A stretch of 14,611 nucleotides of DNA from Escherichia coli (GTDB lineage: Bacteria; Pseudomonadota; Gammaproteobacteria; Enterobacterales; Enterobacteriaceae), in assembly GCF_003334255.1 (NCBI RefSeq), contig NZ_QOWU01000079.1; one strand, given 5' to 3'. Both the position numbers and the translations under genes were made by a program. The notes under the pieces are model-generated. The model made no database searches. It saw only the letters and a list, made by a program, of their open reading frames with translations, and was not told the DNA's origin. Of the stretch, positions 12,192 through 12,764 are shown one piece after another; the stretch's first letter is position 1; each line of letters opens with the position of its first letter.

Positions 12192-12511
12192 ATTTGTGGT
12201 AAATGGGCGGCTGGTGGGTGTGGTGGTTGTTGCTTTCCCGTTGCTGAAAAAGAAAGCATCAGGCGATTAGCAGGGTATCAGTTACCCGTTGAAATTTTTA
12301 AATACCTCACAATTCAGGCGGTTGACTGTTGTCTGGTTTGCGGGGAGTTTGTTAAAAGAAACTGGCATGGTGAATCCCCCTGTGCGGAGGGGCAATCAGC
12401 AACTGGTGTTTTGTCACCGACCCTTATCCTTTCTGTGCGGGTTCAGGTGCTGATACTGAACTCACCGGGAGGCACCCGGCACCATGCAATGGCACATAGC
12501 GCCACTCTCCA

Positions 12512-12536
12512 GCCCCTCTCCGGAGGGGCTTTCTTA
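12512..12536 (+). terminator. intrinsic terminator (stem GCCCCTC/GAGGGGC, loop TCCG, TTTCTT)
   Basis: Seen directly; no ORF ends here, so it may terminate a non-coding transcript or a long leader. Confidence 0.5.
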
Positions 12537-12541
12537 TGGAC

Positions 12542-12570
12542 AAAAAAAGCCCGCGCTGGGAGACGCGGGC
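12542..12570 (-). terminator. hairpin (stem GCCCGCG/CGCGGGC) preceded by A7 on the + strand, i.e. a minus-strand intrinsic terminator, back-to-back with the 12512-12536 terminator
   Basis: Seen directly. Confidence 0.4.
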
Positions 12571-12764
12571 GGCAAGGAATAAACAACAAAACGTGAAGTA
12601 ATATTTCAGCTGGCGAATAATATCCGACAGTAATCACTCTGCGCAATAGCGCGGCCTTTTTCGTATTGCGGGCTGTAGTCTTCCTCCTGCCATTGTCCTG
12701 TAACTTCCGGACTTCAGCCCGTTCCCTCATCTGACTCACAACATTATCCCGACCGGGAGGATTC

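Follow-up and report, generated by a model that had tools for sequence, protein, structure and literature searches.

Two small RNA genes between Q and nanS-p

We analyzed a 14,611-nucleotide stretch of Escherichia coli DNA (the window; contig NZ_QOWU01000079.1, assembly GCF_003334255.1) and, within it, the interval from 12192 to 12764 that lies directly upstream of the prophage esterase gene nanS-p. The gene nanS-p begins at 12765 (start codon ATG, 12765-12767). Upstream of the interval are the phage gene Q (11384-11779) and a 65-aa cargo open reading frame (ORF; 11984-12181) that matches phrog_331, is annotated in RefSeq as WP_000917742.1, and has its own intrinsic terminator on the plus strand (12168-12191; stem 12168-12185 plus a T-run). 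Phage PhiR5_1 and E. coli 2012EL-2448 carry the interval with 100% identity, and their gene order here is Q, 65-aa ORF, interval, SASA-family esterase (nanS-p), holin and lysozyme, the last two lying further 3′ of nanS-p in the identical RefSeq prophage. We find that the interval very probably contains a dyad, of a kind carried by lambdoid, Shiga toxin (Stx)-type prophages, in which two small RNAs (sRNAs) that bind Hfq are transcribed independently and converge on each other. The dyad and both of its RNAs are already known, having been reported in 2014 from Hfq cross-linking and analysis of cDNA (Hfq-CRAC) in enterohaemorrhagic E. coli (EHEC) and again in 2021 from the ligation and sequencing of interacting RNAs (RIL-seq) in enteropathogenic E. 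coli (EPEC). Convergent sRNA pairs occur at exactly this site, between PR′ and the lysis genes, in at least 8 Sakai prophages (Tree et al. 2014, PMC4104026), and a review describes such "dyads" of Hfq-binding sRNAs as an unexplained arrangement (PMC7873438).

The two RNAs meet at back-to-back terminators. The plus-strand terminator (12511-12539) consists of a stem at 12511-12530 followed by TTCTTATGG, coincides with an Rfam consensus terminator helix, and has an interrupted U-tract (UUCUUAUGG). The minus-strand terminator (12542-12570; stem 12570→12549, T7, or U7 in the RNA, at 12548→12542) starts 3 nt from the end of the plus-strand terminator tail. Across 11300-13100 there are 6 terminator-like sites, compared to 1.8 ± 1.3 in shuffled sequences. 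An earlier reading of the letters alone (the original prediction) had described this terminator pair, which is borne out by the two stems, along with several hairpins; all of these elements are present where it placed them or within 1-2 nt. It had treated the minus-strand terminator as a mere neighboring feature, a view that does not hold, as this terminator is the 3′ end of a second, convergent sRNA whose homologues have been detected experimentally and bind Hfq.

STnc100 on the plus strand

A search of the window with Rfam cmscan places the sRNA STnc100 (RF02076) at 12336-12541 on the plus strand, with a score of 143.2 bits (E = 3e-32; gathering score 47 bits) and a full-length match to the model (positions 1-206 of 206). 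The core is closed by a helix between 12365-12372 and 12480-12487 and contains internal hairpins at 12377-12392, 12442-12464 and 12465-12479 (Rfam alignment and minimum free energy fold), and a variable 3′ module (12488-12510) lies ahead of the terminator. The three hairpins and the plus-strand terminator of the original prediction are the consensus helices of the STnc100 model, and all of them form. Folding 55 diverse cores together revealed compensatory changes in 9 of the 26 predicted pairs, mainly in hairpins 12377-12392 (C-G to U-A) and 12442-12464 (G-C, A-U, C-G). Further copies had been gathered from IMG/VR with an exact 20-nt core pattern; because this pattern fixes the closing helix in its 3′ half as well as hairpin 12465-12479, these two elements carry no covariation information.

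As the terminator at 12168-12191 follows the cargo ORF, the plus-strand sRNA needs its own promoter in the lysogen. Among 84 distinct copies, conservation upstream of STnc100 rises only from about 12297, and the conserved region (12297-12364, plus strand) contains candidate promoter elements, found by eye and by conservation: a −35 element TTGTCT (12330-12335), a 17-nt spacer and an extended −10 element TGtTAAAAG (12350-12358). These elements predict a start at about 12365, and the start of EPEC PasD2 estimated from RNA-seq (NC_011601 741157) aligns with the G of GCAUGG, which is 12365 in the window. A longer form of the RNA could arise from an A/T-rich box that resembles a −10 element at about 12297-12303.

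The STnc100 predicted downstream of stx2B overlaps with EcOnc27, the sRNA103 of EDL933 (Paganini et al. 2025, PMC12711010). EcOnc27 yields northern bands of ~235 and 247 nt, the 247-nt form being destabilised without Hfq, and EcOnc05 of prophage Sp4 is ~222 nt long (Tree et al. 2014, PMC4104026 Table S2). Expression as discrete, Hfq-associated RNAs is known for EcOnc27 and EcOnc05 from Hfq-CRAC and northern blot (PMC4104026) and is reported for sRNA103 (PMC7873438). Overall, homologues of the plus-strand RNA measure about 172-247 nt. The original prediction had proposed a non-coding transcript of roughly 340 nt ending at 12536: the discrete RNA ending at about 12536-12541 stands and is STnc100, whereas the length is too long, given the sizes of the homologues and the onset of conservation.

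The window copy resembles EcOnc27 (Sakai Sp5), EcOnc05 (Sp4) and sRNA103 (EDL933) in its helices, terminator, position and convergent partner. The nearest copy is that of Sakai prophage Sp4, compared to which the window carries 15 additional nt in its variable loop; compared to the 933W copy, the 3′ module differs. The copies in Stx phages follow stx genes and that of Sp4 follows tRNA genes, whereas the window has neither of these upstream and carries the 65-aa ORF as cargo.

STnc100, PasD1 and PasD2 are of common ancestry, and pasD lies directly upstream of a sialate esterase gene (Zhu, Shabalina and Storz, 2026 preprint). PasD1 and PasD2 of EPEC occupy the same place between Q and the esterase gene and have the GCAUGGUGAAUCC start and overall core fold in common with the window RNA. 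Unlike the window RNA, PasD carries the seed UGUGAG, ends at a GGCUGCGCAUUGCGCAGCC terminator (the hairpin equivalent to 12639-12664) and has no convergent partner. The PasD seed is absent from the window, which, when aligned with the PasD2 locus, is homologous only where the core begins and around the distal hairpin. PasD2 scores 41 bits with the STnc100 model, below the gathering score, and aligns poorly with the window, which rules out PasD as the identity of the plus-strand RNA. By sequence, this RNA is STnc100 proper, of the same family as EcOnc27, EcOnc05 and sRNA103, and a relative of PasD.

We also observed a large group of STnc100 copies with a different 3′ module beginning ACAACAACAAUACAG (IMG/VR loci such as L009, L012, L020, L022 and L104), spanning clusters 4, 8, 11-13 and 24-26 of the survey described below. 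This module is C/A-rich and resembles the GcvB target consensus that AgvB also carries. Such modules suggest that the variable 3′ tail of STnc100 may be its seed, and in some variants the tail could act as a sponge.

The minus-strand RNA is a homologue of EcOnc08/21/42

The minus-strand sRNA (12542-12736) is a homologue of EcOnc08, EcOnc21 and EcOnc42 of EHEC and of E2348C_1409.E2348C_1408.IGR of EPEC. The EPEC RNA was recovered in Hfq RIL-seq as a new sRNA of 182 nt, and EcOnc08/21/42 were named as its EHEC homologues (Pearl Mizrahi et al. 2021). It maps to 12723→12542 of the window, a segment that is near-identical to the copies in EPEC prophage PP6 and Sakai Sp4 and Sp15, with a mean column identity of 94% overall in the alignment with the EPEC and Sp4 copies. 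The EHEC peaks lie on the antisense strand in Sp4 and Sp15 (PMC4104026 Table S2). Transferred to the window, these Hfq-CRAC peaks fall at 12544-12616 (EcOnc08), 12622-12707 (EcOnc21) and about 12626-12708 (EcOnc42); the mapping of EcOnc42 in Sp15 used an inferred 135-nt offset between Sakai genome versions, checked against the position of StxS/tR′. No Rfam family matches the minus-strand RNA by cmscan.

There are three candidates for the 5′ end: 12723 from the EPEC RNA-seq estimate, about 12736 from a promoter-like site described below, and about 12812 from the EHEC northern blot (~271 nt). In its long form, the RNA runs antisense to the leader of nanS-p. Directly 5′ of the terminator lies the seed CCUUGCC (12577→12571), and the seed sequence TTCCTTGCC is invariant in 19 sequence variants, three of which are strongly diverged. 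The terminator stem covaries in one diverged copy (L062), and the G/U-rich stretch between the −10-like TATTAT and the seed is variable among the 19 variants. The window RNA is like EcOnc08/21/42 and the EPEC sRNA in terminator, seed, orientation and distance to nanS-p, and differs from them by a few substitutions, one of them in the terminator loop.

In prophage PP6 of EPEC E2348/69 (L006, 612-2251), STnc100 is truncated by ISEc13 and the minus-strand sRNA is intact and expressed, which indicates that the minus-strand RNA needs no intact partner. The window differs from PP6 in that its dyad is intact.

Candidate promoters and a shared hairpin

A promoter scan of 11300-13100 revealed a single sigma-70-like site, P1 (12743-12771, minus strand; −35 ATGTCA 12771→12766, −10 GATAAT 12748→12743), which would give an RNA of ~195 nt. 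P1 overlaps the ribosome-binding site and start codon of nanS-p and is conserved, but this conservation is inseparable from the constraint imposed by the nanS-p translation start. A candidate internal promoter, P2 (12611-12646, minus strand), consists of a −35 TTGCGC (12646→12641), an 18-nt spacer and a −10 TATTAT (12622→12617) that is invariant in the 19 variants, including the three diverged ones. In phage 933W the same −35 and spacing, with a −10 of TAAAAT, stand ahead of the mapped 5′ end of the sRNA AsxR, so that P2 is at the AsxR/AgvB promoter position. This shared geometry suggests an internal promoter, which would start at about 12611 and yield a short RNA of ~70 nt (12611→12542). The Hfq peak of EcOnc08 falls on this short region; sizes given in publications are 182 and ~271 nt.

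The −35 of P2 is embedded in a conserved structure. On the plus strand, a hairpin followed by a T-run (CTGCGCAATAGCGCGG CCTTTTTCGT; 12639-12664) is kept in all phages compared (933W, Sp4, Sp15 and the Stx2a phage). Both by sequence and by position it is the counterpart of the PasD-type sRNA terminator, as seen in cluster 3 of the survey described below and at the EPEC PasD2 locus, and its other strand contains the −35 of P2 or of the promoter of AsxR/AgvB. Read-through of STnc100 as far as this hairpin would produce an RNA of ~300 nt antisense to the minus-strand sRNA.

A possibly exchangeable position beside STnc100

Matches to the interval occur in 295 phage records, mostly of Stx-converting phages, and in 2776 of the 5426 complete E. 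coli genomes. The Stx2a phage, VT1-Sakai, 933W and Sakai Sp4 all have STnc100 in this place, with scores of 138-208 bits. To describe what follows it, we surveyed 128 copies of the STnc100 core with enough downstream sequence to classify. An EcOnc42-type RNA is next in 33 of these copies (including the window), AgvB in 15 and AsxR in 5; in another 12 the 3′ end is PasD-like and stops at the counterpart of hairpin 12639-12664. Unrelated sequence comes after many of the others (e.g., clusters 1, 4, 5, 7 and 8), from which it follows that STnc100 is not tied to nanS-p, an argument against its being purely a leader. The position on the minus strand behaves as an exchangeable module would.

The occupants of this position differ by family. 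In 933W, AsxR is convergent to STnc100 and abuts it, and the minus-strand RNA of the window replaces the AsxR module position for position. No match to AsxR (RF02703) or AgvB (RF02702) was found by cmscan at E ≤ 1 in 11780-12900, with 933W as positive control (AsxR 88.1 bits, AgvB 40.9 bits), and the minus-strand RNA is therefore rejected as a member of either family. It shares with AsxR and AgvB the slot, the orientation, the promoter geometry with the hairpin as −35, and a layout in which a short variable 5′ part is followed by the terminator. By contrast, the window RNA shows no sequence similarity to AsxR and AgvB, the conserved ~42-nt 3′ region of their class is absent from it, AsxR and AgvB are 51-60 nt long compared to 182 to ~271 nt for the detected homologues of the window RNA, and AsxR and AgvB sponge core sRNAs whereas the recorded partners of the window-RNA homologue are mRNAs.

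Candidate targets of the minus-strand RNA

In EPEC the homologue of the minus-strand RNA forms RIL-seq chimeras with the 5′ untranslated regions (UTRs) of cfa (767 chimeras) and dppA (197), and with tir, emrA and espC (Pearl Mizrahi et al. 2021). GGCAAGG is the motif that MEME identified in these targets (PMC8550237 supplement), and the CCUUGCC seed is complementary to it. In the cfa 5′ UTR the seed has an 8-nt perfect match to CGGCAAGG, which was equalled or beaten in 87 of 1000 shuffles and owes its meaning solely to its falling on the target motif already published. The G/U-rich stretch beside the seed has a 10-nt match to a C/A-rich element of the dppA leader (equalled or beaten in 10 of 1000 shuffles).

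Alternative explanations

The interval might instead be a decayed protein gene, or a scar left by the loss of tRNA and stx genes. RefSeq annotation by the Prokaryotic Genome Annotation Pipeline (PGAP) places a pseudo "hypothetical protein" with an internal stop on the minus strand at 12355-12495 (L001 3164-3304) and has no non-coding RNA (ncRNA) feature here; a 107-aa minus-strand ORF matches a PHROG; and in Stx phages and Sp4 the stx or tRNA genes are immediately upstream of the same element. Several phage records also place up to three hypothetical proteins over the interval. The pseudo-CDS sits, however, atop the 143-bit STnc100 match, and the PHROG, of unknown function, has only 40 positions, of which 30 residues are matched. 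Two plus-strand ORFs (54 and 61 aa) have no PHROG match, so that none of the three ORFs of 54-107 aa has credible family support, in agreement with the original prediction of no convincing ORF. Homologous copies differ by indels of 1, 4, 5 and 8 nt that break every frame, as well as by cassette replacement. Together with the short PHROG match, this rules out a protein-coding reading, and the interval is supported as non-coding. As to tRNAs, ARAGORN found none in the whole window and Rfam gave no tRNA match or scoring tRNA fragment there, compared to three tRNAs in each of the control loci L002 and L005; a tRNA or tmRNA is thereby ruled out, as the earlier failure to find a cloverleaf had indicated. 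Alignment confirmed that the interval is the Q to nanS-p cargo slot of Stx phages: about 12297-12764 is the spacer between stxB (or the Sp4 tRNAs) and nanS-p in the Stx2a phage, VT1-Sakai (Sp15), 933W and Sp4. Homology with the stxB-to-nanS-p spacer of Stx1 and Stx2 phages starts ~40 nt after the stxB stop rather than within stxB, so nothing suggests a toxin or tRNA remnant. The suspected deletion scar is likewise not supported: no tRNA or toxin-gene remnant turned up, and the cargo of the slot is simply another small gene, the 65-aa ORF. We consider a decayed gene or a scar very improbable.

Two further explanations center on nanS-p itself. A reading of the entire interval as a structured leader or attenuator that acts in cis on nanS-p, its hairpins controlling read-through with no independent RNA, would account for the two plus-strand terminator-like hairpins (12511-12530 and 12639-12654) that lie in the nanS-p leader and are passed by late transcription. 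This appears improbable, although less so than a scar: the homologues are discrete Hfq-bound RNAs in uninduced lysogens, STnc100 precedes unrelated sequence in the survey clusters named above, and the region is cut off from the cargo ORF by the terminator at 12168-12191. A structured leader, which the original prediction had offered as an option, is for these reasons not the main role of the interval. The minus-strand RNA might also work mainly in cis, as an antisense RNA to the nanS-p leader or late transcript or by promoter interference, which would be compatible with the dyad. From 12542 to about 12736 it is perfectly complementary to the nanS-p leader, P1 overlies the nanS-p start, and Sp4, Sp15, EPEC PP6 and the Stx2a phage keep the same arrangement ahead of nanS-p. 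Against a mainly cis role are the abundant RIL-seq chimeras of the EPEC homologue with distant mRNAs that share the motif, the conservation of the seed and terminator rather than of the whole antisense stretch, and the trans action of AsxR and AgvB, the occupants of this slot in other phages. On balance such a role seems rather unlikely, and any cis-antisense effect on nanS-p, like the promoters and 5′ ends of both RNAs, is something we infer.

A number of results weigh against the dyad of independently transcribed Hfq-binding sRNAs. Consensus promoter scanning of the plus strand found no strong sigma-70 site for STnc100, and its interrupted U-tract means that termination may be leaky. Compared to shuffled sequences, the stability of the whole-molecule fold is modest for STnc100 (z = −2.1) and for the minus-strand RNA (z = −0.7); with z-scores this weak, structural support comes from covariation and not from energy. 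The sizes of the homologues disagree (172-247 nt for the plus-strand RNA, 182 versus ~271 nt for the minus-strand RNA), which makes the 5′ ends uncertain. RNAduplex pairing of the seed region with the cfa and dppA leaders was no better than with shuffles (85 and 87 of 300 as good). Expression, Hfq binding and target lists are carried over from homologues rather than from this prophage, and the only proven mechanisms among RNAs of this slot are those of AsxR and AgvB.

Proposed action of the dyad

Judging from the homologues, both RNAs would be made in the lysogen while the late genes are silent; bound to Hfq, they would pair in trans with mRNAs of the host and of virulence genes. The start of the minus-strand RNA may lie within or close to the nanS-p translation start, with a probable second start at the internal AsxR-equivalent promoter. 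The RNA would then run antisense through the nanS-p leader and expose CCUUGCC just before the terminator at 12570-12542, with cfa, dppA, tir, emrA and espC as candidate targets of this seed. For STnc100, homologues point only to effects on fimZ and espA that are indirect. In the lytic phase, RNA polymerase modified by Q would read from PR′ through the plus-strand terminators into nanS-p and the lysis genes; that late PR′ transcription passes terminators by Q antitermination is established lambda biology.

Other features of the window

Just 3′ of Q, the segment 11788-11864 (plus strand) contains a strong intrinsic terminator (AAACCCGCCGCCTGGCGGGTTTTTT), and a weak isrK-like Rfam match covers 11788-11861 (16.5 bits, E = 0.75). 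This segment is probably the short PR′-tR′ transcript, which by position corresponds to lambda 6S RNA and to the StxS of Stx phages. A G/T-rich tract (GGGCGGCTGGTGGGTGTGGTGGTTGTTGC; 12200-12235, plus strand) separates the terminator of the cargo ORF from the conserved region ahead of STnc100; from 12212 onward this tract is common to prophages with a DUF3927 gene upstream.

Elsewhere in the window, Rfam identifies isrK (5250-5326, plus strand, 58.9 bits) and C4 antisense RNA (5351-5438, plus strand, 80.7 bits). Both matches lie inside a 382-aa ORF (4890-6038, plus strand) that RefSeq names "Rha family phage regulatory protein". The Pfam "Ash protein family" domain at aa 117-212 (about nt 5238-5525) falls exactly over both RNA matches, and the Rha domain starts from aa 222. 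Either the coding sequence has been drawn too long, across a c4/isrK immunity RNA module of the P1 type, or the Pfam family partly models translated RNA genes.

Implications

The assignment is of use for annotation, as RefSeq and phage records have no ncRNA feature here and hypothetical or pseudo coding sequences are called over STnc100. The minus-strand RNA is without an Rfam family even though the interval matches in about half of complete E. coli genomes. What both RNAs do, and why such dyads lie beside toxin and esterase genes, are questions already recognised in the field (PMC7873438). We tentatively suggest, as a possibility that we hold to be somewhat doubtful, that the minus-strand slot is a swappable seed cassette with a fixed promoter and position, in which AsxR, AgvB, EcOnc03 and the CCUUGCC type are exchanged. 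The window RNA would then also be made as a primary transcript of ~70 nt (about 12611→12542), a fourth member of the class of short phage RNAs by function and not by sequence, and might act on cfa and, through its 10-nt match to the C/A-rich element used by GcvB, on dppA. If true, the action of this cassette RNA on dppA would follow the opposite logic to AgvB, which mimics a GcvB target.

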